64,000 nt of DNA from an uncultured delta proteobacterium. GTDB taxonomy: Bacteria; Desulfobacterota; Binatia; UBA9968. The notes beneath the pieces were generated by a model, which was not told the origin of the DNA, searched no databases, and worked only from the letters and a program-made list of their open reading frames with translations. A program made the translations under genes and the position numbers. Position 1 is the stretch's first letter; each line of letters begins with the position of its first letter. The stretch is taken from assembly GCA_963816145.1 (NCBI GenBank), contig CAWFJP010000016.1, positions 1 to 64,000 of the forward strand, written 5' to 3'. Of this stretch, positions 17,610 to 41,414 are shown piece after piece.

Positions 17610-17948
17610 ATGGAAAAACCACGTATCAGACATATCGCGATCAACGTCGAGGATCTCGACAAAACCGCGGAGTACTACAAGAGAGTCTTCGGCATGGAAG
17701 AGAAGCATCGGCGGCCTGGAGGGACGATTTATTTATCCGACGGCCATATGGATTTGGCGCTGATTCACAGCGACAAATATCCTTGGGGCATTCATCACTT
17801 CGGTTTCAAGGTCGAAAGTGTTGAAGAGATCGAGAGAATCGCCAACACGACCGCCGAAGAAAATACTTACGGAGCGATTGCCGAGAGCTGGATTAAAGAC
17901 GTCGAAGGCAATCGCGTCGATGTCTCGAAACATGGTTGGCCGGTCTGA
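17610..17948 (+). CDS. VOC/glyoxalase family protein
   Basis: IRHIAINV, GIHHFGFKV, DVEGNRVDVS; AGGAGG RBS. Confidence 0.88.
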   Translation: MEKPRIRHIAINVEDLDKTAEYYKRVFGMEEKHRRPGGTIYLSDGHMDLALIHSDKYPWGIHHFGFKVESVEEIERIANTTAEENTYGAIAESWIKDVEGNRVDVSKHGWPV

Positions 17949-17991
17949 TTTTTTGTTCAAGGTTCAAGGGTTCGAAAGTTCAAGGTTTCGG

Positions 17992-26676: not shown

Positions 26677-26716
26677 GTCCATCCGTCGAATCGCGACACG
26701 GAACCTGGCGTCTTTC

Positions 26717-26915
26717 ATGTTTCTCTCGGGGTTGTAACCCCCTCCCTGTTAGTCGACGAGAAGATCTGTCATGCCGGCGCAGGCCGGCATCCAGGTTGAT
26801 TTCGGTTCGATTGCAAAAGGCTGGATTCCGGCCTACGCCGGAATGACGAAAGGGAGAGTCGACTTCCAGTCGAGAAACTCGGAAGCACTCGGCTTGGAGC
26901 CGAGGATCATTCCGT
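26717..26915. mobile_element. Composite palindromic repeat/MITE, copy 2
   Basis: gtcatgccggcgcaggccggcatccag...ctggattccggcctacgccggaatgac plus a 3' segment shared with 4083-4312. Confidence 0.7.
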
Positions 26916-27023
26916 TCCTTGTTTGCGAGGAGACCTGCGCTATTTACGAGCTCAATGATTACCATTCAGATGGTGAATAATCAGCCCGAACCCCTGCAAT
27001 TAAACCTAACCTGGCCTTCACAG

Positions 27024-28013
27024 TTATCGACTTCCCAACTCCTTCAACGCTTCTTCCACCAACGACGGGTCAACGATCATTTGCGGCGTGACGGTCGCGG
27101 GAATCACCTTGGCGTCTTTTTCGATTTGCAGGAGAATATCCACGCCGTCGAGGGGGACGCGGCCGTCGCGGCTGAAGGAGTTCACCACGGCGTCGTAGGA
27201 TTCGCGGGCGAGTTTTTCGTCCATGTTAAACCGTTTGCGGATCACTTCGGTGGTGCCGGCGGCGTTGGCATGAATGAAGCGCAGCGCTTCGATCTCGGCC
27301 TTGAGCATGCGTTTTATCTGCGCGCGGTTGGTTTTGATCTTCTCGAGTGTTGCGCCGAGACCGGAGAACGGGATCACGACGTAGTCCGAGGTCTGGGCCA
27401 GGACCGGATATCCCTCGCGTTTGAGTTGCACGGAAAACGGCGGCGCGACCGCGACCGCGTCAACCCGCCCGAGTTTAAACGTGTCGTATACTAATCTTTC
27501 GTCGCCAATAGCGAGGATCTTAACATCCTTGTCGATGTCGAGACCGAACTGTTTTAACGTCATGCGCACGCTGATGTGGTTGGTGCCGGCAATGGAGGTG
27601 AGGCCGATGACCGCGCCTTTTAGGTCTTTGATGCTCTTGAATTTATTCTGGCCGATGACGCTGAAAAACGGCGCTTTAATGCCGGTCGAAATCGCTCGCA
27701 CCGGCAGATTGCGCGCCGCCGAGCGGATGATCGAGCCGATCAGCTCGGCGTAGTCGATGTCGCCGCCGAGCAGGGCGGCCATCGCGATGTTGGGACGCAT
27801 GACGATCAGCTCGACGTCCGAGCCATACTTGAGATAAAGGCCGCGGTCCTTGGCGACGAACGGCACTAGAAAGGCCAAGGAGCTGGTGGCGATGGCGGCG
27901 CGGACTTTCTCCGGCGCGGGTTTCTCCTGGGACCGCGCCGGTACGGGTAGCAGCAGCACCATTAAGGCTAGCACAACCACAGTGAGTGAAATTTTCTTCG
28001 TCGACTCGATCAT
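27024..28013 (-). CDS. SsuA/NMT1-like substrate-binding protein
   Basis: Signal peptide, ALLGGDIDY, DLKGAVIG, DKDVKILAIG. Confidence 0.85.
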   Translation of the reverse strand: MIESTKKISLTVVVLALMVLLLPVPARSQEKPAPEKVRAAIATSSLAFLVPFVAKDRGLYLKYGSDVELIVMRPNIAMAALLGGDIDYAELIGSIIRSAARNLPVRAISTGIKAPFFSVIGQNKFKSIKDLKGAVIGLTSIAGTNHISVRMTLKQFGLDIDKDVKILAIGDERLVYDTFKLGRVDAVAVAPPFSVQLKREGYPVLAQTSDYVVIPFSGLGATLEKIKTNRAQIKRMLKAEIEALRFIHANAAGTTEVIRKRFNMDEKLARESYDAVVNSFSRDGRVPLDGVDILLQIEKDAKVIPATVTPQMIVDPSLVEEALKELGSR

Positions 28014-28113
28014 TGAAGTTTTTACTCCTTGTCTCGGCTCCGGGCGCCTTGTGCGTGTGCGACCAAATATGGCCGAAAGAGTTTGCCAACTCAACTTCTC
28101 GTTGGCTAGTTGA

Positions 28114-28142
28114 TTGACAGCGTTCTAAGCTTCGCATAGTTT
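28114..28142 (+). promoter_or_regulatory. Putative sigma-70 promoter for the LLM gene
   Basis: TTGACA-17 bp-TAGTTT. Confidence 0.45.
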
Positions 28143-28207
28143 CGCGGCAATTCGCGAACTAGAGAATAACCAATGTTGGATTGGTTTAGTATTCGATATC
28201 ATCTTTG

Positions 28208-28246
28208 CCCTCACCCCAGCCCTCTCCCACATGCGTGGGCGAGGGA
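28208..28246. repeat. CCCTCACCCC.GCCCTCTCCC..GGG.GAGGG hairpin repeat
   Basis: Same family as the MITE target hairpins and DUF559 flanks. Confidence 0.7.
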
Positions 28247-28320
28247 GCCGGAGAAAGCGCGGCAAGGTTAGACACTGCATCAGTTTGACCTCGCCGCGAT
28301 GATTGAATTGAATGGCGACC

Positions 28321-29337
28321 ATGAAATTTGACGTTAGTCTGCTGGTTCATGATCTCAGCCAGATGCCCGCGTTGGCGCGCTTTGTCGATGAGTTGGGTTT
28401 CGATGGCATCTGGACCTTTGAGACCTCCCATGATCCCTATTTGCCCCTGGTGCTCGCGGCGGAACATAGCGCGCGTTTGAGTTTGGGTACGAGCATCGCC
28501 GTCGCTTTCCCGCGCAGTCCGACGATTACGGCGCAGATCGCTTGGGATCTGGCGCACTATTCCAAGGGACGATTCATTCTCGGTCTCGGTACTCAGGTCA
28601 AAGGGCACAACGAGCGCCGCTTCGGTATCAAATGGGAGCGGCCGGTGGCGAAGATGCGCGACTACATTCTCGCAGTGCGCGCTGTTTGGGATAGCTGGCA
28701 GCATCAGGCAGGCCTCAATTACCAGGGCGAGTTTTACAAGCTGACGTTGATGACGCCGTTCTTCAGCCCGGCGCCGCATGAATATTCACGTATTCCGATT
28801 TTTGTCGCCGGCGTCAATCAGCGCATGTGCGAGCTTGCCGGCGAGCTATGTGATGGCTTTCACGTTCATCCGCTGCACACGACGCGCTATATCGAGGAGC
28901 GGATCTTGGCGAATATCGAGATCGGCTTGGCGAAATCGGGCCGGACGCGATCGGCGATCGAGTTGTCGAGCAGTATTTTCGTAATTCCCACCGACGACGT
29001 AGAGCAGGCGGTCAAGTATGAAGCCGACTTGCGCCAGCAGATCGCTTTCTATGCCAGTACGCCGCCGTACCGGCCGGTCTTCGAAGTTGAAGGATGGAGT
29101 GATGTCGCGGATCAGCTAAGGGCGCTCGCGGCGCGTGGCCAATGGTCGGCGATGCCATTGTTGATCACCGATGAGATGCTTGACCGCTTCGTGCTGCGAG
29201 GCGGTTGGGCGGATTTGCCAGCGCTGCTGCGGCAAAAATATTCAGGACTGCTCGACCGCGTGAGCTACTATTTCCCGCTGGTTCTCGGCGAAAACGAAGC
29301 CGGCTGGCGCGCCACCGCTGCCGGTTTCAAACGATAG
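28321..29337 (+). CDS. Luciferase-like (LLM) oxidoreductase, probable F420-dependent TIGR03617-like
   Basis: ETSHDPYLPL, TSIAVAFPRSP, GRFILGLGTQVKGHNERRFG, LMTPFF, HPLHT, AFYASTP. Confidence 0.85.
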   Translation: MKFDVSLLVHDLSQMPALARFVDELGFDGIWTFETSHDPYLPLVLAAEHSARLSLGTSIAVAFPRSPTITAQIAWDLAHYSKGRFILGLGTQVKGHNERRFGIKWERPVAKMRDYILAVRAVWDSWQHQAGLNYQGEFYKLTLMTPFFSPAPHEYSRIPIFVAGVNQRMCELAGELCDGFHVHPLHTTRYIEERILANIEIGLAKSGRTRSAIELSSSIFVIPTDDVEQAVKYEADLRQQIAFYASTPPYRPVFEVEGWSDVADQLRALAARGQWSAMPLLITDEMLDRFVLRGGWADLPALLRQKYSGLLDRVSYYFPLVLGENEAGWRATAAGFKR

Positions 29338-29340
29338 TCA

Positions 29341-30351
29341 TTATCGTTCGTTTTTCGGCGCGCGGCCGTAGAGCTTGTCGATAAAACCCGACTTTCTCAC
29401 TTCTTCGATCACCGAGGTATCCATCAACTGCGCCGGCTTGAAGTTGCGCGCGTTGGGATGGCCGAGCGAATCTAGAGCGTTCTGAACGCCGGCGGCTTCC
29501 GGGATTGGATACTCACGCATGCTGAAGGTGAGCCGGGTGTAAATATCCTTGGCCACGGCGGGATCTTTGATGCCTTCTTCCGCGAGAATCGAATACACCA
29601 ACTTGGGTTTGGTCTTGAAAGCGTAAATGCCTTCGACATAGGCTATGACGATGCGTCGCGCCAGGTCGCGCTGGTTTTTTATCATCGCGGCCGGAACGGT
29701 GACGCCGAAGCGAGCAAAATCGAGAGGTAGTTCGGCAAGATCGGCGAGGGCGAGGCAACAGCCGCTGGCGAGGACCTTATGGACGCCTTCGGGACTGACC
29801 AGCGCGCCATCGACATGGCCGGCAAGCAAGGCGCCCATGCGCGTCGGCGTGTTGCCGGACTGCAGCAGCATCACATCTTTCTCCGGGTCGAGCTTCCAAG
29901 AGCGCAGCACCATGCGCGTGGTCAAGTCCGATGCTGAGCCAAAGCGGCTGACGGCGATCTTCTTACCTTTCAGGTCGTCAGTCTTAGCAACGTTTTTCCG
30001 GGTGATGAAGATATGTTCGAGGCGGTTGATGTTGACGGTGATGACCTTGGTGTCCATCGCCCCGGATACCGGCAGCGACATCATTTCCGGCACGCCGGAA
30101 TCCGAGACGACGATGTTGCCGCCGAGCAACGCCTGGGTCAAGATGCTGCCGCTATTGAAATAAATCGATTTGACGTTAAGGCCGTGTTTCTCCCAGATGC
30201 GCTCCTTTTCCATCACCCGGCGTAGATCTGAACTTATGCCCGAGCCGCTGTAGCCGAGCATGAGATTCTGCGGTTGCGCCAGCGCGACGGTCGCGCCCAA
30301 AAAGAAAGAAAGAAGTCCACAAAGCAAGTATTTCACTGATTTTGTATTCAC
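29341..30351 (-). CDS. SsuA/NMT1-like substrate-binding protein
   Basis: GGAGG RBS, signal peptide, DLKGKKIAVSRFGSASD, DPEKDV. Confidence 0.85.
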   Translation of the reverse strand: MNTKSVKYLLCGLLSFFLGATVALAQPQNLMLGYSGSGISSDLRRVMEKERIWEKHGLNVKSIYFNSGSILTQALLGGNIVVSDSGVPEMMSLPVSGAMDTKVITVNINRLEHIFITRKNVAKTDDLKGKKIAVSRFGSASDLTTRMVLRSWKLDPEKDVMLLQSGNTPTRMGALLAGHVDGALVSPEGVHKVLASGCCLALADLAELPLDFARFGVTVPAAMIKNQRDLARRIVIAYVEGIYAFKTKPKLVYSILAEEGIKDPAVAKDIYTRLTFSMREYPIPEAAGVQNALDSLGHPNARNFKPAQLMDTSVIEEVRKSGFIDKLYGRAPKNER

Positions 30352-30376
30352 GTTCGTCCTCCGCAATGGTTTGAGT

Positions 30377-31378
30377 TTAACTCGCCCGACCGTAAAGTTT
30401 GTCGATAAAGCCAGATTTTTTGATTTCTTCCATAAGACTGGTGTCCATGATGCTTGCCGGTTTCACGTTGCGGGCGTTGGGATTGGTCAGCGAATCGAGC
30501 ACATTTTGGATGCCGTTGGGTTCGGGCACGGGATATTCCCGCATATTTTTGAGCATCCGTTCATAGATATCTTTTTGAATCGCCGGGTCTTTGATCCCTT
30601 CTTCTTCAAAGCCGGCATATACCGCCTTGGGACGGGTCCGGAAAATTGCAATGCCTTCCAGATAGGCCATCAGCAGTCGGCGCAGGACATCACGATTTGC
30701 CTTAATCCAAGCCGTGGGAAAGACGTAACCGTAGCGCGCATAATCCATCGGCAGCTCGGAGAGGTCGGCGAGAATGCGGCAGCAGCCCGACGCCATGACT
30801 TTGTGTACGCTTTCCGGACTCACCAGCGCGCCATCGACATGACCGGCGGCCAGCGCCGTCATGCGCGTCGGCGTGTTACCTGATTGCAATAAAGTCACTT
30901 CTTTGTCCGGGTCGATTTTCCATGACTTTAACGCCATTCGGGTCACGGTATCGGAGGCCGAGCCGATGCGGCTGACCGCGAGACGTTTGCCTTTGAGATC
31001 TTCAGGCTTGGCGACGTTCTTACGGACGACAAAGACATGTTCGATCTTATTGATCGTGACGGTGACGAGCTTTAGGTCGAGAACTCCCGAAACCGCTAGA
31101 TTCAACATGCCTGGGACTTCCGACTCCGAACCGGCGATGTTACCTCCGGCCATAGCCTGAGTCAGCACGCTGCCGCTACTGAAATAAACGCTCTTGACGC
31201 TGAGACCGTGCTTCTCCCAAATCTTGTCGCGTTCGATGATCCGGCGCAGGTTGCCCAATGATCCGGCGCCGCCGCTGTGGCCGAGAATGACGTTTTGGAG
31301 CGGCGCCTGGGCCGTGGTGAGAGACGACAACGAAATGAACGACAATATTCCGGAGACAACTGCAAAGACTTGCCTCAT
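30377..31378 (-). CDS. SsuA/NMT1-like substrate-binding protein, tandem paralog of 29341..30351
   Basis: Shared LQSGNTPTRM, GHVDGALVSPE, ASGCC, MREYP. Confidence 0.85.
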   Translation of the reverse strand: MRQVFAVVSGILSFISLSSLTTAQAPLQNVILGHSGGAGSLGNLRRIIERDKIWEKHGLSVKSVYFSSGSVLTQAMAGGNIAGSESEVPGMLNLAVSGVLDLKLVTVTINKIEHVFVVRKNVAKPEDLKGKRLAVSRIGSASDTVTRMALKSWKIDPDKEVTLLQSGNTPTRMTALAAGHVDGALVSPESVHKVMASGCCRILADLSELPMDYARYGYVFPTAWIKANRDVLRRLLMAYLEGIAIFRTRPKAVYAGFEEEGIKDPAIQKDIYERMLKNMREYPVPEPNGIQNVLDSLTNPNARNVKPASIMDTSLMEEIKKSGFIDKLYGRAS

Positions 31379-31460
31379 AACGCCTCCTCGCAAAAACCGT
31401 TTTCGTAGTGGCCTAGGCTGTCAATCGCAAAACTTCCAATTCTCATCCGATGATCCCTGC

Positions 31461-31544
31461 CGTCATTCCCGCGCACGCGGGAATCCAGGTTGAGACTGAT
31501 GGTGAACGTGAAGAGTCTGGATTCCCGTTTGCACGGGAATTACG
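31461..31544. repeat. dRS3/RPE-like REP doublet (ATTCCC-N8-GGGAAT)
   Basis: cgtcattcccgcgcacgcgggaatccag...ctggattcccgtttgcacgggaattacg. Confidence 0.8.
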
Positions 31545-31596
31545 GTTTTTCAGTTCCTCGCTATTCGACGCTTTGCAACAATTCGTTAGGGAAGCT

Positions 31597-33039
31597 TTAA
31601 CGTGCTCGGCCGATCATATCTTTCAGCAGCGCTGGATACTTCTTGTCCAATTCCGCTTTCAGCGCGTCGGTGACGGCATTGACCGGCGGAAATTTATCTT
31701 TCCATTCGTAGGGCCGGGTGGCGTCGATGATGGCGCGCGAGTTGAAGCCTTTGCGTTCGCGCGGGATCGCCGGATCAAGTGGGCCGCTCCAGCAGCGGTG
31801 CAAAATATCGATGTTCTCCGGTTCCGAGCGCGTGCCGATGGCCCAGATGACGTCGTTGGGATTGTAGATATCGACGTCGTCATCGACGACGACCACGTAG
31901 CGGCCGAGATAGGCGCCGGGGCGGCATTGGCTGGCGATCAGCGCCGCTTGCTTGGCGTGGCCGGGATAGCGCTGCTTAATTTTTAGAATTGAAAAAAAAC
32001 GATAGGCGGCTGGGTGAAGCCACACGCCTTGAACGTCAGGCACGCCGGCGTCTTCGAGAGCGTTCCAGATCAATGCCGAGCGTTGGATCGAGCGGTGAAA
32101 GCCCTGTCCCGCCGACGGGCGCAGCGGCGGCTCGCCGCAGAGAATCGGATTGTTTCTGTAATAGAGCGCTTTGATACGCACCACCGGCTCGGGCCGCGTC
32201 GCGCTGGCGTAGTAGCCCGGCCATTCGCCGAAAGGTCCTTCGGGCAGGTCGTCGCCGGGAATCATCTCGCCTTCGATGGCAATCTCTGAATAGGCTGGAA
32301 TCGGCAATCCGGTCAGCGGTCCCAGCACCAGTTGAATCGGTTCGCCGATGACGCCGCCGGCGTAATCGAACTCGCTCATCTTGTTGGGTACATCCGTGCA
32401 GCCAGCGAGAAATAGAATCGGATGATGGCCGAAAGACATGACCACGGGGCAGGGTTTGCCTGCTTCGAAATACTTTTGCCGCTGCACGCGGCCATGCTTG
32501 CCCGGCGAGATATACAGCGCGACGGCGTCTTTGCCTTGGAGCATGACGCGGTAGGTGCCGGCGTTGATCCAATGCTCTTCGGGATCTTCGGTGATGACCA
32601 GATCGTCGGTGCCGATGTAGCGGCCGCCGTCTTCTTCATGCCAGCGCGGAATCGGGAAGACTTCGAGGTCGATATTCTTGTCGACGCGGTTTTCAAAGAT
32701 CGGCGCGTCTTTAACGAACTCGGCCGGCACCGGCTCGAAATTGCGAATCTTGCGGCGCCACGCCTGAATGAAATCGGTCAGGCCGAGTTTCGGATCGGTG
32801 CCCATGGCGATGGCCAACCGCGGCAGGGTGTCGATCTGGCTGCAGAGAATCTCCATGTCCTGGCGCGCGCTGGGAATCTTTTCGAACAGCATCGCCGGCG
32901 GATGGGCGCTGCGTTCGAGAATCATCTCGACCAAGCCGCCGATGTCTTTGTCCCAGGGGATATTTGCGATGCGACGCAGTTCGCCGATTTTGTCGACTTC
33001 GGTTAGGAATGCCCGCAGGTCGTGGTTGGAGGGGGTCAT
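31597..33039 (-). CDS. UbiD family prFMN-dependent (de)carboxylase
   Basis: DGGRYIGT, NAGTYR, EGPFGEWPGYY, VVVDDDVD, IDAT. Confidence 0.92.
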   Translation of the reverse strand: MTPSNHDLRAFLTEVDKIGELRRIANIPWDKDIGGLVEMILERSAHPPAMLFEKIPSARQDMEILCSQIDTLPRLAIAMGTDPKLGLTDFIQAWRRKIRNFEPVPAEFVKDAPIFENRVDKNIDLEVFPIPRWHEEDGGRYIGTDDLVITEDPEEHWINAGTYRVMLQGKDAVALYISPGKHGRVQRQKYFEAGKPCPVVMSFGHHPILFLAGCTDVPNKMSEFDYAGGVIGEPIQLVLGPLTGLPIPAYSEIAIEGEMIPGDDLPEGPFGEWPGYYASATRPEPVVRIKALYYRNNPILCGEPPLRPSAGQGFHRSIQRSALIWNALEDAGVPDVQGVWLHPAAYRFFSILKIKQRYPGHAKQAALIASQCRPGAYLGRYVVVVDDDVDIYNPNDVIWAIGTRSEPENIDILHRCWSGPLDPAIPRERKGFNSRAIIDATRPYEWKDKFPPVNAVTDALKAELDKKYPALLKDMIGRAR

Positions 33040-33142
33040 ACTAAGCCTCAAAGGATGAATCATGAAGGCGGAAAGATGAAGGAAAGAGTCTACGATCGAA
33101 TGGGCGAAACTTCATCCTTCATCCCTCATCCTTTCGCCTTAT

Positions 33143-33916
33143 TTAGACTGCCAATTCAACCGCTGCGCGGTGCATGACGCCGTAGAGATCGACGGCGGCG
33201 GTGGCGCAGTATTCCAGATTGTAGCCTTCGCGACAGTCGGCGTAGCCGTCTTCTAAAATGCGCTGCATGACCAGTTTGTTAAAACTGCCATGGCCCATGA
33301 CGCCGTCTTCATGTTCTTTCAAGTCGGCCTCTTCGTGGGTCGAGAAGTAAACCGCCTGCTGTTTGGTGAAGCCGTATTTTTGCGTCAAAGTCTTGAACCA
33401 CAAGGCGGACCAGTGGCCGATGGGCTCTTCGGTGAGCATGGAGAACCACCATTCGGCGACGGTTCCTTCCCACATGAGTTGGCGCTTGAAGTCGAGAATC
33501 GCGCGGCACTCGGGAAGCATCGGTTCGCGCAGAATTTGATCTTTGGTCAGCCCAAGCGCTTCGGCGGTCTGCAGCATGACCAGCACATGGCCGGGCGGTT
33601 TGGGATGAATGAATTCATCGGCGATCTTGACGCCGAGGGGGCCCATCAAGTCGGGATGGCGCTTAAAGAAGCCGATATGCTTGTGATAGGAGACCGAGAC
33701 CAGCGTGTTGATTTCGACGGTGAAGTTGCCCCAGTTTTTGAAAAACAACTTGATCGCCGGCAGCGGCAACGTGCCTTCGAGAAACGGCCTCATGAATGGG
33801 CCGTCGGTGACGCGCTCTCTCCAGCGTTGAACGACTTTCTTGTTCACTTCGCCAATGTAAACTTTGGCGTCGTCGGGACTCATCTTGACGCCAAGTTGGG
33901 GAGTTAGCTGACTCAT
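33143..33916 (-). CDS. Heme-oxygenase-like diiron protein, NWG/HPxPPGH class
   Basis: DEFIHPKPPGH, TEEP, HEEAD...H. Confidence 0.75.
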   Translation of the reverse strand: MSQLTPQLGVKMSPDDAKVYIGEVNKKVVQRWRERVTDGPFMRPFLEGTLPLPAIKLFFKNWGNFTVEINTLVSVSYHKHIGFFKRHPDLMGPLGVKIADEFIHPKPPGHVLVMLQTAEALGLTKDQILREPMLPECRAILDFKRQLMWEGTVAEWWFSMLTEEPIGHWSALWFKTLTQKYGFTKQQAVYFSTHEEADLKEHEDGVMGHGSFNKLVMQRILEDGYADCREGYNLEYCATAAVDLYGVMHRAAVELAV

Positions 33917-34001
33917 GACTGTTTACTGAGGTGTTGGGTCTGGCGTCTAGCGCTTCCGCGTGGAACCCTAGATGCCAGACGCTGGACCTTGGGTGGTTTT
34001 T

Positions 34002-34913
34002 CTAAGTTCGATAGAGATTGTCGATGAAGCCGCTGTCGTCGATTTTTCTTAGATGGTGGAAGTCCCACAGCGCCATCGGGTCGCATTTCTCGGCGGCTTT
34101 GTCTTGCTCGATGGCGATTTCATAAACATTGGAGATCGCCGGGATGGTGGCGTAGGGCTTGGCTTGCAGGATCAGCTTCAGATCGTCGTAGAGATGCGCC
34201 GCCGTCTCTTCGTCGAGCTCGCCTTCGGCTTTGTATTTGTCCTTGATGATCTTGATGCATTCGGCGCGATGGGTCTTGAAATAGGCGATGCCTTCGCAAA
34301 TGCCGCGTAGCATCTTGTCGACGATGTCGGGATGTTTTTCGACGAAAGCCAAACCGCTGGAAACCGTGGTGAACCACACCATCGGCAGGAACGACACGTC
34401 GATGACCTTCAAACCGGCGCGCTTGGAAAGAATATCCGCCGGCGGCGTGACGAAGGCAGCGTCGGCTTCGCCGTCGCGCACCGCTTCCCAGTGAAACTTG
34501 GTGCCCTTGGCTTTCTCGACATGGCAGTCGTTGAGCAAGCCGGCCTGTTTGATGAATAGCCAGGTGTTCAGGCCCGGATGCTTGCCCTTGGTCGCGACGG
34601 TCTTGTCTTTGAGATCGCTCACCTTGTTGATGCCGGAGTCGGCACGCACGACCAGACGGTGGTTCAACAGGCTGACGGTTTGGCCCAGGTAGACCCATTT
34701 GTCGCCGACTGGGCGGCGGATATACGGCGAAAGATGATTGCCGCCGACGAACTCGACACTGCCGTTGGCGACGTTTTTGTGCGAATCTTCCGAGGTGATC
34801 TCGTAATCGTAATTGACTTCCAGTCCATGTTTGGCCCAGGAGCCCGATTCGTGCACGACATGCAGGAACGGCAAATGGCTATCCGAACGATAGGGGAAGT
34901 TTACTTTATCCAT
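34002..34913 (-). CDS. SsuA/NMT1-fold protein without a signal peptide
   Basis: GAGGAGG RBS before MDKVNFPYR; WAKHGLEV, DLKDKTVA, GEADAAF, DDSGFIDNLY. Confidence 0.75.
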   Translation of the reverse strand: MDKVNFPYRSDSHLPFLHVVHESGSWAKHGLEVNYDYEITSEDSHKNVANGSVEFVGGNHLSPYIRRPVGDKWVYLGQTVSLLNHRLVVRADSGINKVSDLKDKTVATKGKHPGLNTWLFIKQAGLLNDCHVEKAKGTKFHWEAVRDGEADAAFVTPPADILSKRAGLKVIDVSFLPMVWFTTVSSGLAFVEKHPDIVDKMLRGICEGIAYFKTHRAECIKIIKDKYKAEGELDEETAAHLYDDLKLILQAKPYATIPAISNVYEIAIEQDKAAEKCDPMALWDFHHLRKIDDSGFIDNLYRT

Positions 34914-35012
34914 GGTGTGGCCCTCCTCAAATTCTTCGTTGGCTTCCGACGATGGCCGCAACCTACAAGGAAAGCGCCGGGGCTTCAACCTCAAATTTGC
35001 CGGGCGAATCGG

Positions 35013-36002
35013 TTAGCGCAGCACGCCTTCTTTGCGCAACTCCTGCTGCGCTTCCAAGAGCAAACGGTTGTCGAAGATCGCCGACAGCGGCGCGGTGAAT
35101 TTCGTTTTTGCCAACTCCGACTCCAGTTGGATCGAAGCGCGCAAGGCGCTTTCCGTCATGCTGCCGTCGCTGCTGAAAATAGCGCCGAGATTTTTGTAAA
35201 GATTTTCCGCTGTACCGGCATCGACGCTCATCCACTCGCCAATCAATTTGGCGGCCTCGTCTTTCTGGGTGCGGATGAAGCGCTGGCTCTCGATCAAAGC
35301 TTTGATCATGCGCTTGACCTGGTCGGGCGATTTTTGCAGCTTTTGCTCGCTCACATCCAAGCCGGAGATCGGAATGTCGACGTGATCTTTATCCCAGAGC
35401 AAGATCTTGTACCCCATCGACGTGCCGAGCGTGTCCAACGGCGGGCCATGGGAGGCGGCGTCGATTCTGCCGGCTTGCATGGCCGCGAGTTGGCTGCGCA
35501 CATCGCCGGCGGGCAAGATTTTCACGTCTTTAACCGGATCGATGCGAAATTGATTCAAAATCGTCAGCAGACTCAAGTGGATGGTGCTGCCGGCGGAGCT
35601 GACGCCGATGGTTTTGCCTTTCAAATCATTCAGCGATTTGACCTCGGGTTTGACCAAGATCATGAAAATGACCTTCTCGGCGCCCATCATCACCAACTTA
35701 ATCGGGATGCCGCGCAGGGCCGCCGACACCGCCGGTTGAAAGCCGTTGTAGTAATCGAGGTCGCCGCTCAGGAGTGCCGGCACGGCGACTGAGGAGCGCA
35801 GCAAAATGATCTCCGGGCGAAAACCATACTTGGCGTAGAAGCTTTTTTTCTCGGCGACGAAGAGCGGCAGCGAGCCGAAGCCGCGGCTGGACACGCCGAT
35901 ACGCACGCGTTCTTGGGCGATAGCTGGGAATGAAGCTGGAAGGGCGAAAGTAGCCAGCAAGAGAAATTGGACTGCCAAGTTTCTTAAGCTACGGCGGTTC
36001 AC
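35013..36002 (-). CDS. SsuA/NMT1-like substrate-binding protein (start uncertain)
   Basis: Signal peptide, ALLSGDLDY, DLKGKTIGVSS.GS, DPVKDV. Confidence 0.85.
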   Translation of the reverse strand: MNRRSLRNLAVQFLLLATFALPASFPAIAQERVRIGVSSRGFGSLPLFVAEKKSFYAKYGFRPEIILLRSSVAVPALLSGDLDYYNGFQPAVSAALRGIPIKLVMMGAEKVIFMILVKPEVKSLNDLKGKTIGVSSAGSTIHLSLLTILNQFRIDPVKDVKILPAGDVRSQLAAMQAGRIDAASHGPPLDTLGTSMGYKILLWDKDHVDIPISGLDVSEQKLQKSPDQVKRMIKALIESQRFIRTQKDEAAKLIGEWMSVDAGTAENLYKNLGAIFSSDGSMTESALRASIQLESELAKTKFTAPLSAIFDNRLLLEAQQELRKEGVLR

Positions 36003-36010
36003 GAATTCGT

Positions 36011-36089
36011 GTAGCGGCAACCCCCTGTGGTTGCCCGCGGATCGCTCCATCGTCGTATCGGAAGGGCAGGCACGGAGGCCTGCCCCTAC
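36011..36089. repeat. GTAG-family REP doublet
   Basis: gtagcggcaaccccctgtggttgccc...gggcaggcacggaggcctgcccctac. Confidence 0.8.
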
Positions 36090-36106
36090 ACGATCATTTC
36101 GCACAA

Positions 36107-37528
36107 TTATTTTAGACCCAGCTTTGGCGCCCACTTTTCCCATACCTCTTCGCGTTTGTCGGCGCTGAATTTATTGGCGACGGCGAACTTGTCGCGCCAG
36201 TGGAAAGGTTTGCAGGCGTCGATCAGCATGCGCCCCATGGTAAAGTCGCCGCGCTCGCGCTTTTCCGGCGGCAGGCGCGGGTCCAAATCGGAGGTCCAGG
36301 ATTTTAGAATCTGCACCGACTCCGCCGGATCGACGCGGGTGCACATGGCCCAGACGACCTGTTTCAAATCCACCGGATCTATGTCGTCGTCGACCGCGAT
36401 GTAGTAACGGTACATGCTCGCGCCGGTCATCATGCCGGCGATGGCGGTGAGCGCTTGCTGTGCCTGACCGGCGAAGCGTTGCTTGAGTGAGATCACGACC
36501 ATCAAGGTGTGGCAATGACACCAGACCCCTTGGACGTCCGAAACGCCGGATTGTTCGAGATGGTCCCAGATGCGCGCGGCGAACAGCGGGATGCCGTAGC
36601 GTTCGGTGATCGGCAAGAGCGGCGGGTTGCCGAGCAGGATCGGATCGTTGCGATGCAGGATTCGTTTTACCCGCACGACGCACTCTTCGCCGCTATGGGT
36701 GTAATAGCCCGGCCATTCGCCGAAGGGGCCTTCGCTATGGCTTTCTTCCTCCGGCGGCGGCATCGCGCCTTCGATGACGATTTCCGAGGTCGCCGGGACG
36801 GGCAGTCCGGTATAGGGAGCGCGGATCACTTCGAGCGGCGCGCCGCGTAAAGCGCCGGCGTATTCATATTCGCTCACTCCGGCTTTGGCCGCCGACGGCG
36901 CGGCCATCCAAGTGGCCGGCTCGCATCCGAGCACGATGGCGACGGGGCAGGGCTTGCCGGCTTGCCAATATTTGCGGGCGATCTGTTTGCCGTGTTTCTG
37001 CTCGATTATCCAGAGCGTGACGCGGTCTTTGCCGACGATGCAGGATCGATAGGTGCCGACGTTGACCCAGCCGCTGTCGGGATCTTTGATCACCACCATG
37101 TCGCCGGTGCCGATGTAGCGGCCGCCGTCATGCTCGTGCCATTTCGGCGTCGGGAAAATTCCCAAATCGATTTTGTCACCTTCGAAAATGTTTTCCAGGA
37201 TCGGTCCTGAGGAAACTTCGATGGGCGCGAAGGGTTTCAAATCGCGAATCTTGTTGCGCCAGGTTTTTAAAATTTCCAGCTTCGGCGCGTCGGTATCCAG
37301 TCCCAGCGCCAGCGCGAAGCGGCGCGCGCTGGCGAGCACGTTGGCGGCGATGCGAAATCCTTTGGGATATCCCGTGATGTTATCGAAGAGCAGCAACGGA
37401 CCGTCCTGCTCCGCCATCAGCTCGGTCAAGCAGCCGATCTCCAGATTCCAATCGGCGCCGTCGATTTGTTTCAGTTCGCCGATGCGCGCGGCGCCGTCGA
37501 TGAAAGTGCGCAGGTCGGGAAAAGCCAT
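36107..37528 (-). CDS. UbiD family prFMN-dependent (de)carboxylase
   Basis: DGGRYIGT, NVGTYR, EGPFGEWPGYY, VDDDID, IDAC. Confidence 0.92.
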   Translation of the reverse strand: MAFPDLRTFIDGAARIGELKQIDGADWNLEIGCLTELMAEQDGPLLLFDNITGYPKGFRIAANVLASARRFALALGLDTDAPKLEILKTWRNKIRDLKPFAPIEVSSGPILENIFEGDKIDLGIFPTPKWHEHDGGRYIGTGDMVVIKDPDSGWVNVGTYRSCIVGKDRVTLWIIEQKHGKQIARKYWQAGKPCPVAIVLGCEPATWMAAPSAAKAGVSEYEYAGALRGAPLEVIRAPYTGLPVPATSEIVIEGAMPPPEEESHSEGPFGEWPGYYTHSGEECVVRVKRILHRNDPILLGNPPLLPITERYGIPLFAARIWDHLEQSGVSDVQGVWCHCHTLMVVISLKQRFAGQAQQALTAIAGMMTGASMYRYYIAVDDDIDPVDLKQVVWAMCTRVDPAESVQILKSWTSDLDPRLPPEKRERGDFTMGRMLIDACKPFHWRDKFAVANKFSADKREEVWEKWAPKLGLK

Positions 37529-37588
37529 TCAATCACACTCCATACCCAATTTTTTCGACGCGGTCCTAAATCCGACTTCCTCTCCCAA

Positions 37589-37720
37589 GAGACTGTGTCG
37601 CAACTGTCATTCCGAGGTGAAGCCGAGGAATCTCTTCTTCGTATGTGGCTGAAAATACGAGATCCCTCGCTTCGCTCGGGATGACAGATGTGGGGCATTT
37701 GCGCATTACGACACAGCCTC
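37589..37720 (-). mobile_element. 132-bp MITE copy 3 (inverted), TSD CAA
   Basis: gagactgtgtcgcaa...ttacgacacagcctc; caa at 37586-37588 and 37721-37723, inside cctctccc..gggagagg. Confidence 0.88.
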
Positions 37721-37744
37721 CAAAGGGAGAGGGAATCAGTATTA

Positions 37745-38764
37745 TTACGATTGTGTTTCTTCGCGGAAAAATCCCAACGCTTCGATCGCTGGGCGATCGT
37801 TGATCGAGAACAAGATCGCCGGCTCCCGGGCATTGTTTTCGTGGGCGTGCCAGTTCCATAGCGGCAGGACGAAGGAGTCGCCTTGTTGCCATTTGAATTC
37901 GACATCGCCAATCTTGGTTACGCCGCTGCCGCGGAAGGCATGGTAGACCACGGTGTGCGTGTGGCGGTGCGTGCGGCTTTTCTCACCGGGACGGAGCATT
38001 TGGATCTCGCAGTTCATCGTCGGCAAGGTCGCGCCGCCGCCGACCGGGTCGGAGTAGCGCAGCAAGATGCCGTCGAAGGGATCGCCAGGCGATTCGGCCA
38101 TCCCCTCGAAAGCCTTCTCGGTGTCTTTCCAAGCGTAGCGGTACGGCGGGCGAAAATTCGCCGAAGTTGGAGTCGGTGCAGGTTGTGGGCGGAGGACGTT
38201 GAAGGTCTTCTGCGACCAACCGATCGGCTTGCTGACCGGCTGTTGCCGTTCGTGGAACGGGTTGGCGAAACCCGCCTGATAATAGTGCAGCATCGGCCCG
38301 TCGGCGCCGTCGAGCCAGACGATCGGCGTGTCGCCGCTGTTGACATGATCATGCCAAGTCCAGCTCGGTGTGGTGATCAAATCGCCGGGCTCCATCGGCA
38401 ACGGCTCGCCTTCGACAACGGTCGCCGCGCCGCAGCCTTCGACCACGAAGCGGATCGCGCCCATGGTGTGGCGATGCGCCGGGGCGAACTCGCCGGGCCG
38501 GACCATTTGCGCGCCCATGAGCAGAGTATGCGCCGTGCCGAGCTTCAATTCCGGATGCTGATAGCCGATGAAGCGGCGAAACGCTTCCTCGGGCCGGATG
38601 AATTTGGCGGCGTTGTCGAGGGCGGGGCGAATCTCTTTCCACTTCCACAGAAACGGCCGGAAATTCGCCTCCGGCTCGCGAAAGCCGGTACTGGTATTGG
38701 GAATCGTCCAGTACCCGATCAGATTCTGCTCTTTGAGTTTACGGTTGAGTTCGTCCAGCGACAT
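37745..38764 (-). CDS. Bicupin ring-cleaving dioxygenase, gentisate 1,2-dioxygenase family
   Basis: APAHRHT..AIRF..EG, GDLITTPSWTWHDH, WLDGAD, HRHT, GDSFVLP.W.WH.H. Confidence 0.88.
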   Translation of the reverse strand: MSLDELNRKLKEQNLIGYWTIPNTSTGFREPEANFRPFLWKWKEIRPALDNAAKFIRPEEAFRRFIGYQHPELKLGTAHTLLMGAQMVRPGEFAPAHRHTMGAIRFVVEGCGAATVVEGEPLPMEPGDLITTPSWTWHDHVNSGDTPIVWLDGADGPMLHYYQAGFANPFHERQQPVSKPIGWSQKTFNVLRPQPAPTPTSANFRPPYRYAWKDTEKAFEGMAESPGDPFDGILLRYSDPVGGGATLPTMNCEIQMLRPGEKSRTHRHTHTVVYHAFRGSGVTKIGDVEFKWQQGDSFVLPLWNWHAHENNAREPAILFSINDRPAIEALGFFREETQS

Positions 38765-38863
38765 GGCATCCTCGCTTCGCTCGGAATTTCAAATTACAAA
38801 TTTCAGATCCCACATTCTGAAAATCCGGGAATACGGAATCTGTAATTTTGAATATAAATTTTC

Positions 38864-39607
38864 CTAATGTGTCGCTTTATAGCAGCCATCCATGAACATT
38901 CTGTTCAGATCCGCCGGCGTGACCGCGCAATACTCCGCCGAGTATCCCGGCCGCTCGTTGACGCCTTCTTGGAGCAGGCGCACCAGAACATGCTGGGTCA
39001 CCGCGCCATGGGCCATGCGGTCGAGATGGTCCATGGTGTCGGCTTCATGGTGCTTGGAAAAATAACTCGCCTCGGCGGTGGTGAGACCGTAATGCAGGGT
39101 CAGCGCTTTGAAGAAGTCTAAACAGGAGTCGCCGAAGGGCTTTTCCCAGAGCACCGAAAACCAGTATTCCTGAATCTGGCCGTCGTTGATCAACGTGCGG
39201 TGGAAGTCCGGCAGGGCGCGGCATTCCGGCAACATCGGGGTGAGCAGCACTTCTTCTTTGGTTAATCCGAGCGCCTTGCCGGTGCTCATCAAGATTTGAA
39301 TATGGCCCGGAGGGGAGGGGTGGCCGAATTCGTCCAAGACTTTCTGAGTATAAACCTCCATCAGATCGACGTTCTTTACGAAAAACCACAGGTGTTTGTA
39401 AAATGCCGAAGTGTAAACCGAATTGATCACCGGCACGAAGGCGCCCCAGTTTTTGTAGAATAGCTGGAGGGTTTCCTTTTTTAGCTTGCCTTCGCGCAGC
39501 TCGTCCATGAACTTCGTCTTGTCGACGGTTTGCTTCCAATGCTTGTCGCACTGCGCCGCCAGCTCGGCGATATACTCTATGGCTTGGCTCTCATTGAGTT
39601 TTAACAT
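38864..39607 (-). CDS. Heme-oxygenase-like diiron protein, NWG/HPxPPGH class, paralog of 33143..33916
   Basis: FYKNWG, DEFGHPSPPGH, PMLPECRA, WEKP, HHEAD...H. Confidence 0.75.
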   Translation of the reverse strand: MLKLNESQAIEYIAELAAQCDKHWKQTVDKTKFMDELREGKLKKETLQLFYKNWGAFVPVINSVYTSAFYKHLWFFVKNVDLMEVYTQKVLDEFGHPSPPGHIQILMSTGKALGLTKEEVLLTPMLPECRALPDFHRTLINDGQIQEYWFSVLWEKPFGDSCLDFFKALTLHYGLTTAEASYFSKHHEADTMDHLDRMAHGAVTQHVLVRLLQEGVNERPGYSAEYCAVTPADLNRMFMDGCYKATH

Positions 39608-39750
39608 CACCGCGTCCTCCGAAATTGCCGGTTCCTCATCCATCATGTGAATATGGCACAGCCGTGGAGCTGTCAAGGCAGCGGGATCGCGCGCTTGCTG
39701 AAGCAACAGTGACTAGGATAAAGTAGGGCGAATTCACAGGAGGACAATTT

Positions 39751-40116
39751 ATGGAATGTGTTAACCTCAAAGAGGAAATGGACAAGGCGAAGCGCAAGAT
39801 CGACCTTTTCGGCACGGATAATTTCCGCTCCTGGCTGCTTTATTTCGTGCCCGGTGACGGTACCGACATGCATTATCACGCCAGTCCTGAAACGTTTTTG
39901 GTATTTTCCGGTAACGGCGTCGTCAAGGGGCTCAAAGGCGAGGAGCGCGCGATCAAGAAGGACGACGTGCTCTGCCTGGCGGCCAAGGACTATTACCAGA
40001 TCGTCAATACCGGCAGCGAGCCGTTGGTGCTGTTCGGCAACCGCTCGGAAGCCTTCGGCGGTCCCCATATCCTGGCCGATGGCAGCGACCGGCAGCAAGC
40101 ACAAAAGGGCGCGTAA
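39751..40116 (+). CDS. Cupin domain protein
   Basis: PGDGTDMHYH..PE.F....G, INTGSEPL-like strand; AGGAGG RBS. Confidence 0.8.
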   Translation: MECVNLKEEMDKAKRKIDLFGTDNFRSWLLYFVPGDGTDMHYHASPETFLVFSGNGVVKGLKGEERAIKKDDVLCLAAKDYYQIVNTGSEPLVLFGNRSEAFGGPHILADGSDRQQAQKGA

Positions 40117-40196
40117 TCGCGGCTTCGGCACAATTGACAAGTTGCGGGGTGAGTGATTAAGTTTTCCAACAATTGATTCTTTATCGAGGTTGCTAA

Positions 40197-40526
40197 ATGC
40201 CGATTTACGAGTACCAATGCCAGAAATGCGGCGTCATCGAGGTGACCCAGCGAATCACCGAAAAACCGCTCGGTAAGTGTCCGACTTGTAAGAGTAAAAT
40301 CAAGAAGTTGATCTCCAACACGTCGTTCCAGCTGAAAGGCACCGGTTGGTATATCACCGACTATGCGCGAAAGGGGCAGAGCAACGGCGAGTCGAAGAGC
40401 GAGAGCAGTTCCAAGCCCGCTTCGACTGCTGCGTCGGAGTCGAAGAGCGAAACCAAAAAGAGCGAGAGCTCGAGCAGCAGCGATAAAGCATCGTCGAGCA
40501 GCAGTTCGACCGCGACATCTGCATAA
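40197..40526 (+). CDS. FmdB family zinc-ribbon regulatory protein
   Basis: [12 protein letters not shown]...CPTC...[13 protein letters not shown], Ser/Lys-rich tail. Confidence 0.92.
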
Positions 40527-40691
40527 CTTCACCGTGCGATTCTTTTCACTGAAAGGGCGGCGCCTCAGGGCGCCGTTGTCGTTTGTTGATAGCCTTCCGG
40601 CCCTGTGAAATTAGCGTTTGCGCCTCTGGACGGGTAAGTGGATTTTAGCTATAGGTTAAGCAGCAAAATAACCTGAGGGAGGATTTGATCA

Positions 40692-41414
40692 ATGGCACAG
40701 ACGATTGAAAATATTGTAGATCCCAATGATGCCGCCTTATCATCGGAAATGGTGAGGATCGGCGACTTGAACGCGTATGTTTCGCGCCCCAAGGACGGGA
40801 AAAATTTGGGCACAGTTGTCGTGATTCATGAGAACCGCGGTTTGGTCGGGCATATTAAGGACGTGACACGCCGGTTTGCCAAGGACGGTTTCGCTGCGAT
40901 CGGGGTCGACCTGATGAGCCGCATCGGCGGCAGCGACAAGTGGAATGGCAGCGACGAGGCCACCAAAGAAATCCAGAAAATCACCGGCGCCATGGCTGTC
41001 GAAGATTTGACCGCGGCGGTGGCGTACATGAAAAAACAGAGCTACGTGAATGGCAAAGTCGGGGTAGTCGGCTACTGCTGGGGCGGCGGCCAGTCGCTCA
41101 ACTTCGCGACCAAGTGCAAAGATCTCAACGCTGCGGTGGTTTACTACGGCAGGAACCCCGACCCGCTCGATTCCGTCGCGAATATTCCCTGTCCGGTCAT
41201 GGGTAACTACGCGGCCGACGATGCCAACATCATGCCCGGTGTCGAGCCGCTGAAAGCCGCCCTCGCCAAGGCCGGTAAGAGCTTCGACTGCAAGGTGTTC
41301 GATGGCGCCAAACACGCCTTCAACAACAACACCAACGCCGACCGCTATCATCCGGAAGCGGCAAAAGCGGCTTGGGCGAGAACGACCAGTTTCTTCAAAG
41401 CGAATTTGGCCTAA
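40692..41414 (+). CDS. Dienelactone hydrolase family protein (YghX-like)
   Basis: IHENRGL, GYCWGG, YYG, HAFNN. Confidence 0.9.
   Translation: MAQTIENIVDPNDAALSSEMVRIGDLNAYVSRPKDGKNLGTVVVIHENRGLVGHIKDVTRRFAKDGFAAIGVDLMSRIGGSDKWNGSDEATKEIQKITGAMAVEDLTAAVAYMKKQSYVNGKVGVVGYCWGGGQSLNFATKCKDLNAAVVYYGRNPDPLDSVANIPCPVMGNYAADDANIMPGVEPLKAALAKAGKSFDCKVFDGAKHAFNNNTNADRYHPEAAKAAWARTTSFFKANLA

Follow-up and report, generated by a model that had tools for sequence, protein, structure and literature searches.

Paired heme-oxygenase-like dimetal proteins and a PhdA-like UbiD homologue in a conserved gene cluster of uncultured Binatia

Heme-oxygenase-like dimetal (HDO) proteins are described, in a 2026 paper, as specialists of biosynthesis whose members characterised so far act on amino-acid substrates. 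Their canonical ligand set, described for MboA, consists of three His and three Glu/Asp residues, and in several HDOs the carboxylate of the substrate is reported to be bound at Fe1. UbiD-type decarboxylases, which depend on prenylated flavin mononucleotide (prFMN), include PhdA (PDB 7PDA), the phenazine-1-carboxylate decarboxylase of M. fortuitum; it is reported that this enzyme accepts many aromatic acids, anthracene-1-carboxylate among them, and that Rieske and extradiol dioxygenases follow at its locus. Herein, a gene cluster bringing both superfamilies together is analysed. It lies at 29341-40116 of a 64-kb stretch of DNA (the window), which corresponds to positions 1-64000 of contig C16 (CAWFJP010000016.1) from an uncultured delta proteobacterium of the class Binatia. 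Besides PhdA, its closest described counterparts are the HDO protein CADD (CT610, 4-aminobenzoate synthase), the gentisate pathway clusters, and the ThiY/THI5-TenA and PqqT-PqqC protein pairs. The superfamilies themselves are known; what is new is an uncharacterised, lineage-restricted HDO subfamily, here called HDOX, in a conserved context of degradative type. We give about an even chance to the reading that this is a lineage-specific catabolic-type cluster for a carboxylated, probably polycyclic or N-heteroaromatic, acid, with the HDOs as oxygenases.

Contig C16 is one of 31 contigs in a 7.8-Mb genome bin (G000) with 99.47% completeness and 6.72% contamination. Where close homologues of its proteins have names, these read Candidatus Binatia. 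Gene calls for this bin are rough longest open reading frame (ORF) calls (about 6950), and neighbour counts are approximate. The minus strand between 29341 and 39706 holds nine co-oriented ORFs, and a 121-aa ORF diverges at 39751-40116 (+). All ten had been predicted in a preliminary description made from the sequence, and all were found where it had placed them; its assignments to the HDO, bicupin, UbiD, solute-binding protein (SBP) and cupin families were confirmed by Pfam and NCBIfam. The members of the cluster, starting from the divergent end, are as follows:

39751..40116, plus strand: divergent small cupin, 121 aa (PF07883, 38 bits)
39650..39676, minus strand: promoter-like element upstream of HDO_A, conserved in aligned relatives
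38864..39607, minus strand: HDO_A, HDOX-subfamily heme-oxygenase-like dimetal protein, 247 aa from M34 (PF14518, PF03070, AlphaFold2 model, Foldseek)
37745..38764, minus strand: gentisate-type bicupin, ring-cleavage dioxygenase homologue, optional member (two Cupin_2 domains, NCBIfam, PDB 2d40)
36107..37528, minus strand: UbiD_A, PhdA-like prFMN-dependent decarboxylase homologue, core member (three UbiD Pfam domains, TIGR00148, 7PDA)
35013..36050, minus strand: SBP4, predicted exported NMT1/SsuA-type solute-binding protein, optional member (PF13379, PF09084)
34002..34913, minus strand: SBP3, signal-less (probably cytoplasmic) NMT1/THI5-fold protein, 303 aa, core member (PF09084, AlphaFold2 model, Foldseek)
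33143..33916, minus strand: HDO_B, second HDOX-subfamily protein, 257 aa, core member (PF14518)
31597..33063, minus strand: UbiD_B, second UbiD decarboxylase homologue, optional member (three UbiD domains, TIGR00148)
30377..31393, minus strand: SBP2, predicted exported NMT1/SsuA-type solute-binding protein (PF09084, 47.4 bits)
29341..30366, minus strand: SBP1, predicted exported NMT1/SsuA-type solute-binding protein (PF13379, 35.6 bits; PF09084, 35 bits)

Spacers within the cluster measure 10-99 nt, except between the bicupin and UbiD_A (216 nt) and between UbiD_B and SBP2 (203 nt). At gathering thresholds, zero Rfam RNA families were found in the window.

The two HDOs lie close to the Pfam limit of their superfamily, HDO_B passing the PF14518 cut-off of 28.9 bits with 29.3 bits and HDO_A falling just below it with 27.8 bits (23.2 bits against PF03070). 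They are 42.6% identical, and the motifs KNWG, DEF..PPGH and PMLPECRA, previously noted as common to both, are present in each. The start of HDO_A was corrected from 39706 to 39607 (M34), because homologues begin at residue 34, a conserved ribosome-binding site (RBS) and ATG occur there, and the promoter-like box lies inside the longer ORF. An AlphaFold2 model of HDO_A is all-helical (pLDDT 95.7) and predicts a seven-helix heme-oxygenase-like bundle. In Foldseek, CADD was the top match of this model (8vag; TMq 0.73, TMt 0.83), followed by PqqC, FlcD, TenA, BesC and UndA, and the Foldseek probability was 1.00 against CADD, PqqC, FlcD, BesC, UndA and HmuO. CADD was also the best profile match: a 37-sequence HDOX profile aligns to it at E 2e-16, with conserved E, H, E, H, D and H on six positions that we take to be the CADD metal ligands. 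In addition, E101, H110, E163, H194, D198, H202 and H209 (HDO_B numbering) are invariant in seven HDOX paralogues, and H, H, D, H across seven HDOs from three subfamilies. On these alignments, HDOX appears to keep the superfamily ligand set of three His and three Glu/Asp.

Despite this likeness, HDOX is probably not a CADD-type synthase. HDO_A is only 14-16% identical to the CADD structures that give its best fold matches (8vag, 1rcw; TMq 0.70-0.73), and 7-8 extra residues precede the last His relative to CADD. Furthermore, the HDOX consensus has Met at the aligned position of what we take to be the sacrificial Tyr of CADD, and the gene context of HDOX is of catabolic type rather than folate-related. 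Assignment as a CADD-type 4-aminobenzoate synthase was rejected on the TIGR04305 model, against which HDO_B scored 18.9 bits for a cut-off of 200 and HDO_A was unmatched. Assignment as a PqqC equivalog was rejected as well, with zero PqqC models among the NCBIfam matches at E <= 0.01; the label 'PQQ biosynthesis protein C' given to HDOX proteins by some sources is an automatic name.

HDOX is small and narrowly distributed. An exhaustive search of 1.84 billion cluster representatives yielded 156 HDOX sequences at E <= 0.001 and 20 at E <= 1e-30, and an Atlas search with HDO_B returned only unnamed PF14518/PF03070 clusters. The 120 best homologues of HDO_B are 79-93% identical to it, and those with names belong to Candidatus Binatia. 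The subfamily was detected in 6/6, 2/2 and 2/6 reference genomes from three families of the window's order, in 0/106 genomes from other families of the class and in 0/150 further genomes of the phylum; among the genomes searched, it was thus found only in one order of the class. G000 holds eight HDOX copies, one of them probably broken. The surroundings of other HDOX paralogues read as a degradative repertoire, with FAH hydrolases, GST, xanthine-dehydrogenase-family molybdenum hydroxylases, LigB, an RraA-like aldolase and thiamine pyrophosphate (TPP) enzymes, together with dienelactone hydrolase (DLH), DHDPS, DAO and OCD. N-heterocycle breakdown typically involves several of these families. 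Fused double-HDOX proteins of 507-519 aa also occur (P0135, P0137, P0143, P0152); in P0135, ligand motifs are kept in the first domain and lost in the second, which gives a pseudo-dimer within a single chain.

UbiD_A and UbiD_B each contain PF20695, PF01977 and PF20696 and exceed the TIGR00148 cut-off of 244.85 bits (283.8 and 257.5 bits, respectively), and both are assigned to the UbiD family by predicted domains and subfamily model. They are 40.9% identical and share the GTYR and EGPFGEWPGYY motifs, as well as DGGRYIGT, which the preliminary description had singled out alongside EGPFGEWPGYY. The roles of the catalytic Arg and Glu...Glu residues are presumed here from work on Fdc1. The best PDB match of UbiD_A is 7PDA (E 9.6e-177, 591.7 bits), over residues 2-470, that is full length, and with the same UbiD motifs. 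The identity is about 55-60% as estimated by eye, and the nearest paralogue in its own genome reaches only 53%, which places UbiD_A, on this estimate, nearer to PhdA than to any paralogue. The surroundings differ. Where Rieske and extradiol dioxygenases are described for M. fortuitum, UbiD_A is accompanied by HDOs, an SBP-fold protein and sometimes a bicupin, and it has no adjacent UbiX-like gene; the only one in G000 (PF02441, a 230-aa open frame) is on contig C4. UbiD_B also has 7PDA as best PDB match, at 335 bits.

In a midpoint-rooted tree of 40 UbiD sequences, PhdA not included, 5/5 UbiDs with an HDO neighbour and 4/4 with a bicupin neighbour fall, as read from the topology, in one subclade, which also contains UbiD_A and UbiD_B. 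A UbiD expansion is apparent in the order. G000 has 45 PF01977 matches and seven same-order genomes (G152, G157, G166, G175, G184, G193, G202) have 27 to at least 41 each, with first-look UbiD candidates numbering up to 72 per genome in these seven. In other families of the class, 52/53 genomes were without a PF01977 match and one had a single match. Zero papers with both 'Binatota' and 'UbiD' were found in the literature searched.

Conservation of the locus was assessed in a pattern-plus-tblastn scan of reference genomes, in which 307 stretches were confirmed; of these, the best 80 (77 loci), chosen by HDO_B likeness, were used, nearly all labelled as Binatia or 'delta proteobacterium' metagenome-assembled genomes. 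An orthologue was defined as a best hit with >=55% identity and >=60% query coverage and was counted in the 17 loci with an HDO_A orthologue. As loci stop at contig ends or 10-kb flanks, genes missing near locus edges are not evidence of absence. Orthologues of UbiD_A and of SBP3, the latter between UbiD_A and HDO_B, were present in 17/17 loci, and those of HDO_B in 16/17, the 17th locus being cut at a contig end. The constant core is therefore HDO_A-UbiD_A-SBP3-HDO_B, found together in 16/17 orthologous loci. Optional members are the bicupin (8/17), UbiD_B (8/17) and the exported SBP4 (1/17). The small cupin lies divergently upstream of HDO_A in 16/17 loci, and conserved neighbours on both sides widen the cluster to about 25078-41414:

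40692..41414, plus strand: dienelactone-hydrolase-family protein (DLH) of the divergent operon (PF01738, 160.4 bits); orthologue in 15/17 loci
40197..40526, plus strand: FmdB-type zinc-ribbon protein of the divergent operon (PF09723, 53.2 bits; TIGR02605, 66.5 bits, cut-off 31.3); orthologue in 15/17 loci
28312..29337, plus strand: flanking F420-dependent LLM-class oxidoreductase (TIGR03617, 419.2 bits, cut-off 278.15); orthologue in 5/17 loci, many loci ending sooner
27024..28094, minus strand: neighbouring NMT1-type SBP (PF13379, 58.4 bits); orthologue in 11/17 loci
25078..26676, plus strand: neighbouring third UbiD decarboxylase homologue (UbiD domains; best PDB match HmfF 6h6x, 163.8 bits); orthologue, 89-97% identical, in 9/17 loci

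HDOX genes were grouped by their identity to HDO_A or HDO_B, and the neighbours in each group were counted. In the HDO_A clade (72-95% identity, n=19), a UbiD gene lies no more than two genes downstream in 18 loci, a bicupin is next in 9 and the divergent cupin is upstream in 16. In the HDO_B clade (79-94% identity, n=26), UbiD is the next gene in 15 loci and within three genes in 24, and an SBP gene is immediately upstream in 21; 16 loci carry both clades. A sister clade of HDO_B (70-75% identity, n=10) has UbiD within three genes in none, and the more distant HDOX (n=43) in 2, with an adjacent bicupin in 18. The HDO-UbiD co-occurrence proposed in the preliminary description was thus borne out (18/19 and 24/26 loci), and gene order was found to be kept in related Binatia genomes rather than shuffled. 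Two of its claims stood in part. The order HDO, (cupin), UbiD, SBP does occur twice here, but the repetition is special to this genome, the bicupin, second UbiD and exported SBPs varying in relatives; and the core does lie inside 29341-40116, but the constant unit is only four genes while conserved neighbours reach well past these limits.

Within G000, family labels were shuffled 300 times over the gene calls; three of the 29 PF14518 places were left out for want of a called gene. Family totals were 45 UbiD matches, 29 PF14518 matches and 15 gentisate-type bicupins. Since G000 measures 7.8 Mb, compared with 3.9-5.1 Mb in same-family relatives, these counts may be somewhat inflated by mixed strains. 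The shuffles gave the following:

HDO directly adjacent to bicupin: observed 5/28, shuffle mean 0.15, maximum 1
HDO with UbiD within three genes: observed 6/28, shuffle mean 0.92, maximum 4
UbiD directly adjacent to SBP: observed 7/44, shuffle mean 5.2, maximum 12

The HDO-bicupin and HDO-UbiD links are real, exceeding chance in this genome. UbiD-SBP adjacency is at chance level, because about 6% of the called genes are NMT1-type SBPs, and adjacency by itself does not establish a UbiD-SBP link. Two further co-oriented HDO-bicupin-UbiD triads occur in G000, built on another, more canonical PF14518 subfamily:

411347-415185 of contig C1, minus strand: triad C1 (L084), with HDO at 414199-415185, bicupin at 412948-414105 and UbiD at 411347-412780
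73574-77919 of contig C2: triad C2 (L085), with HDO at 73574-74326, bicupin at 74351-75349, an SBP-like gene, and UbiD at 76426-77919

The UbiDs of these triads are the nearest paralogues of UbiD_B (57.7% identity for C1 and 52.9% for C2). In triad C1, a mandelate-racemase/MLE-family gene adjoins the HDO.

The bicupin is made of two Cupin_2 domains. It aligns with PDB 2d40 (E 1.8e-70), including the HRH...H motif shared with gentisate pathway enzymes, and is predicted to carry metal-binding histidines in its N-terminal cupin, at positions that we take to be the ligands. Its scores stay below both NCBIfam equivalog cut-offs, with 280.8 bits for TIGR02272 gentisate 1,2-dioxygenase (cut-off 442.1) and 299.8 bits for NF049978 5-aminosalicylate dioxygenase (cut-off 650), so it is regarded as a divergent member of the gentisate/5-aminosalicylate dioxygenase type. 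In comparison with gentisate pathway clusters, the bicupin of related HDOX loci is accompanied by FAH or by GST, HDOX takes the place usual for a flavin hydroxylase or isomerase, and UbiDs are attached in the window. Direct copies of a 15-nt word, which has only four occurrences in the genome, flank the bicupin at 37665-37679 and 38770-38784 (-), and another is at 23209 (+). An insertion footprint was considered on this basis and dropped, as the core of the repeat was found in only L017, once, among the 8 bicupin-bearing relatives. Between the bicupin and UbiD_A there is, in addition, a palindromic REP-like element; the relatives L014, L022 and L024, which lack the bicupin, carry it between HDO_A and UbiD_A.

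Four NMT1/SsuA-type SBP-fold genes belong to the cluster. SBP1, SBP2 and SBP4 have signal-peptide-like N-termini as judged by eye, and SBP2 is 62.5% identical to SBP1. SBP4 (PF13379 61.5 bits, PF09084 55.9 bits) probably starts near 36050, with an N-terminus that looks RR-containing, both by eye. SBP3 (PF09084 37.1 bits) is without a hydrophobic N-terminus by the same judgement, in agreement with its earlier description as signal-less. Its start was set at 34913, because its 120 best homologues (74-94% identity) are nearly all 303 aa long. The AlphaFold2 model of SBP3 (pLDDT 93.6) has a type-II SBP fold, and its Foldseek neighbours include the exported Bordetella protein 3qsl, the pyrimidine binder ThiY, the enzyme Thi5, SsuA, TauA, the pyrroloquinoline quinone (PQQ) binder PqqT and the desulfinase DszB; further matches, found with a profile, are the regulatory domains of NrtC and CmpC, which are cytoplasmic and SBP-like. 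A role as carrier, sensor or enzyme would each have precedents among these neighbours. The single SBP3 sequence gave zero PDB matches at E <= 0.01, and an Atlas search with it returned only NMT1 clusters. A possible lead from 4,5-dihydroxyphthalate decarboxylase as an NMT1-fold enzyme could not be confirmed and was dropped.

The adjacency of SBP and HDO_B genes in 21/26 HDO_B loci resembles the ThiY/THI5-TenA and PqqT-PqqC pairs, each of which presumably recognises one N-heterocycle: SBP3 matches ThiY, Thi5 and PqqT in fold, and the HDO matches TenA and PqqC. The likeness is in fold only (12-18% identity), and HDOX keeps its metal ligands. Zero thiamin or PQQ genes were seen in the annotated part of the window, in which pqq genes were not specifically searched for. 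Across G000, about 420 NMT1/SsuA-type SBP ORFs make up the roughly 6% of gene calls noted above, with further examples in the window at 12164-13159, 14221-15219, 17818-18960 and 27024-28094. Most G000 SBPs look like orphans, because the genome has only 99 PF00528 permease-domain matches, none of them on C16.

The core cluster appears to be transcribed from the conserved promoter-like site upstream of HDO_A. On the minus strand, TTGACA (39676-39671) is followed after a 15-nt spacer by CATATT (39655-39650). The TTGACA box is invariant in 9/9 aligned relatives with conserved T.C..TA columns downstream, and the conserved -10-like element, RBS and ATG at 39607 come after it. A consensus promoter scan of 28-42 kb listed three promoter-like sites, fewer than in shuffles, none on the minus strand and the HDO_A box not among them; a terminator scan of the same region gave zero convincing intergenic minus-strand terminators. 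The nine-letter word TTGACAGCC of the conserved box ahead of HDO_A recurs at 31416 (minus strand) in the 203-nt UbiD_B/SBP2 spacer, before SBP2; the word TTGACAGCC has 59 occurrences in the genome, and this copy may act as a promoter within the cluster. Four RNA libraries, drawn from four studies, contain short contigs that match parts of eight genes (SBP1, UbiD_B, HDO_B, SBP4, UbiD_A, bicupin, HDO_A and cupin) with 0-7 differences, and one contig bridges the bicupin end and the UbiD_A start with a spacer 136 nt shorter than in the window. Because DNA can occur in such libraries, these contigs are a weak hint only, and no proof of transcription or of a single transcript; stretches of the cluster that they leave uncovered are uninformative.

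From the families, fold, conserved ligand residues, synteny and enrichment, we infer a substrate class, an order of steps and a catalytic role for each protein. The ligand captured by the exported NMT1-type SBPs would be a carboxylated aromatic acid, most probably of polycyclic or N-heteroaromatic type, with phenazine-1-carboxylate and similar compounds as candidates. UbiD_A, with UbiD_B where present, would remove ring carboxyl groups with prFMN, which the single UbiX-like gene of the genome would supply. Both HDOs would bind a two-metal site (Fe/Fe or Fe/Mn), activate O2 and act oxidatively on the ring, which they would hydroxylate or decarboxylate, in the place usual for flavin or Rieske oxygenases. 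The bicupin, where present, would cleave a salicylate- or gentisate-type intermediate, and SBP3, in the cytoplasm, would bind the same ligand as carrier, sensor or enzyme. That the actual substrate is phenazine-1-carboxylate itself is considered distinctly doubtful. It is tentatively suggested, at somewhat less than even likelihood, that HDOX proteins are the first catabolic heme-oxygenase-like dimetal oxygenases, replacing flavin or Rieske oxygenases on (N-hetero)aromatic acids together with PhdA-like UbiDs and a cytoplasmic SBP-fold partner.

Several observations weigh against a catabolic cluster of this kind. The absence of the bicupin and of UbiD_B from 9/17 relatives each leaves a fixed linear pathway through the nine genes unsupported, and the 216- and 203-nt gaps may harbour further promoters. 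Because every syntenic locus belongs to a single order, shared descent may explain part of the conservation, and the sister clade of HDO_B has UbiD within three genes in 0/10 loci. None of the 99 permease-domain matches of the genome lies on the whole 115-kb contig, and the Rieske and extradiol dioxygenases of the M. fortuitum steps after phenazine are not present in the cluster. Some HDOX paralogues neighbour amino-acid-type genes (DAO, DHDPS, OCD, asparaginase), and the characterised HDOs are described, in the 2026 paper cited above, as specialised in biosynthesis from amino acids.

Part of this evidence would also fit independent modules lying side by side, HDO_A-UbiD_A, HDO_B-UbiD_B and the bicupin each with its own substrate and their adjacency an order inherited in a crowded genome. 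With 45 UbiD, 29 PF14518 and 15 bicupin matches and about 420 SBP ORFs, G000 is crowded indeed; UbiD-SBP adjacency is at chance, each cluster gene has nearer paralogues elsewhere in G000 than its in-cluster partner, the bicupin, UbiD_B and SBP4 vary between relatives, and the cluster has two long internal gaps, one with the second copy of the box before SBP2. This explanation is nevertheless judged unlikely, though by no means negligible, given that HDO_A, UbiD_A, SBP3 and HDO_B stay together in 16/17 loci with short spacers, that 16 loci hold both HDO clades, and that only eight HDOX genes exist among about 6950 called genes, yet two of them are five genes apart. Alternatively, the cluster could be biosynthetic, its HDOs tailoring a small molecule (a cofactor, pigment or signal, for example) that is aromatic or derived from an amino acid, and its UbiDs acting as biosynthetic decarboxylases. 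Such a role would accord with the published characterisation of HDOs, with the biosynthetic BagN/FevL and the menaquinone decarboxylase among the weaker NCBIfam matches of the UbiDs, and with one HDOX paralogue that neighbours a radical-SAM enzyme, an SDR, an FAD oxidase and an O-methyltransferase. It is considered improbable, as the window contains zero ligase, nonribosomal peptide synthetase, polyketide synthase or ATP-grasp genes between 25 and 44 kb, the surroundings of the cluster include three exported SBPs, a bicupin of ring-cleavage type, an alpha/beta hydrolase and a dienelactone hydrolase, and related HDOX genes stand beside FAH, GST and molybdenum hydroxylases.

The HDOX proteins might also not be oxygenases at all. 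TenA-like hydrolases, PqqC-like cofactor-independent oxidases or post-cleavage isomerases, in the maleylpyruvate isomerase slot between bicupin and FAH, could account for the Pfam TENA/THI-4/PQQC match that equals PF14518 in strength in several paralogues, for the presence of PqqC and TenA among the top fold matches, and for loci such as L051, where HDOX sits between the bicupin and an FAH-family hydrolase, and L075, where an aminotransferase gene separates HDOX from the FAH hydrolase. We give this little credence, since all six positions aligned with CADD ligands are kept and are invariant in paralogues, and since the metal enzyme CADD is the top match in both sequence and fold. Finally, the HDOs could serve the UbiDs, for example in oxidative maturation or repair of prFMN, a role already raised in the preliminary description. 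The HDO_A and HDO_B clades are nearly always beside a UbiD, and about 44 UbiD genes share a single UbiX-like gene. Against this, only 6/44 UbiDs have any HDO within three genes, a UbiD lies that close in just 2/53 HDOX outside the two clades (2/43 distant members, 0/10 in the HDO_B sister clade), and HDO-bicupin adjacency is the stronger and more widespread link; a helper function is thus disfavoured and regarded as highly improbable.

Further features of the window surround the cluster. Three more PF14518 HDO-like genes (4322-5035, minus; about 16329-16853, plus; 18957-19670, plus) bring the number in 64 kb to five; the one at about 16.3-16.9 kb is hidden in the gene calls beneath a longer family-less ORF on the opposite strand. 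Elsewhere lie a LigXa-like Rieske oxygenase (2296-3567, minus), a subunit of a xanthine-dehydrogenase-family molybdenum hydroxylase (8586-10946, plus) and a fourth, divergent UbiD (45162-46733, minus). The wider window reads as a larger aromatic or heteroaromatic degradation island. In another HDOX locus, an F420H2-dependent quinone-reductase-family gene adjoins the HDO (L035:9551-9928); together with the TIGR03617 neighbour, it points to F420 use in the lineage.

Consistent with the earlier statement that no described HDO-UbiD pathway was known, the literature searched held no paper with both 'heme oxygenase-like' and 'UbiD', and among papers combining UbiD, gentisate and gene cluster no title, titles only being considered, concerns such a cluster. 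HDO enzymology has so far been biosynthetic and has dealt mostly with amino acids; a conserved and expanded HDO subfamily in degradative-type contexts would open new reaction space, and HDOX would be a source from which oxygenases acting on aromatic acids could be drawn. The cluster provides a small, defined set of proteins: two HDOs, a PhdA-like UbiD, a cytoplasmic SBP-fold protein and exported SBPs. Furthermore, genomes of the order each carry from about 30 to over 40 UbiD genes, and the order constitutes a rich reservoir of prFMN decarboxylases, undescribed in the literature searched. If the proposed reading is true, an uncultured, widespread soil lineage has a Rieske-independent route for phenazine-1-carboxylate or similar heteroaromatic acids. 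Were the substrate a phenazine, uncultured Binatia would be counted, beside the mycobacteria, among the degraders of a key soil antibiotic.

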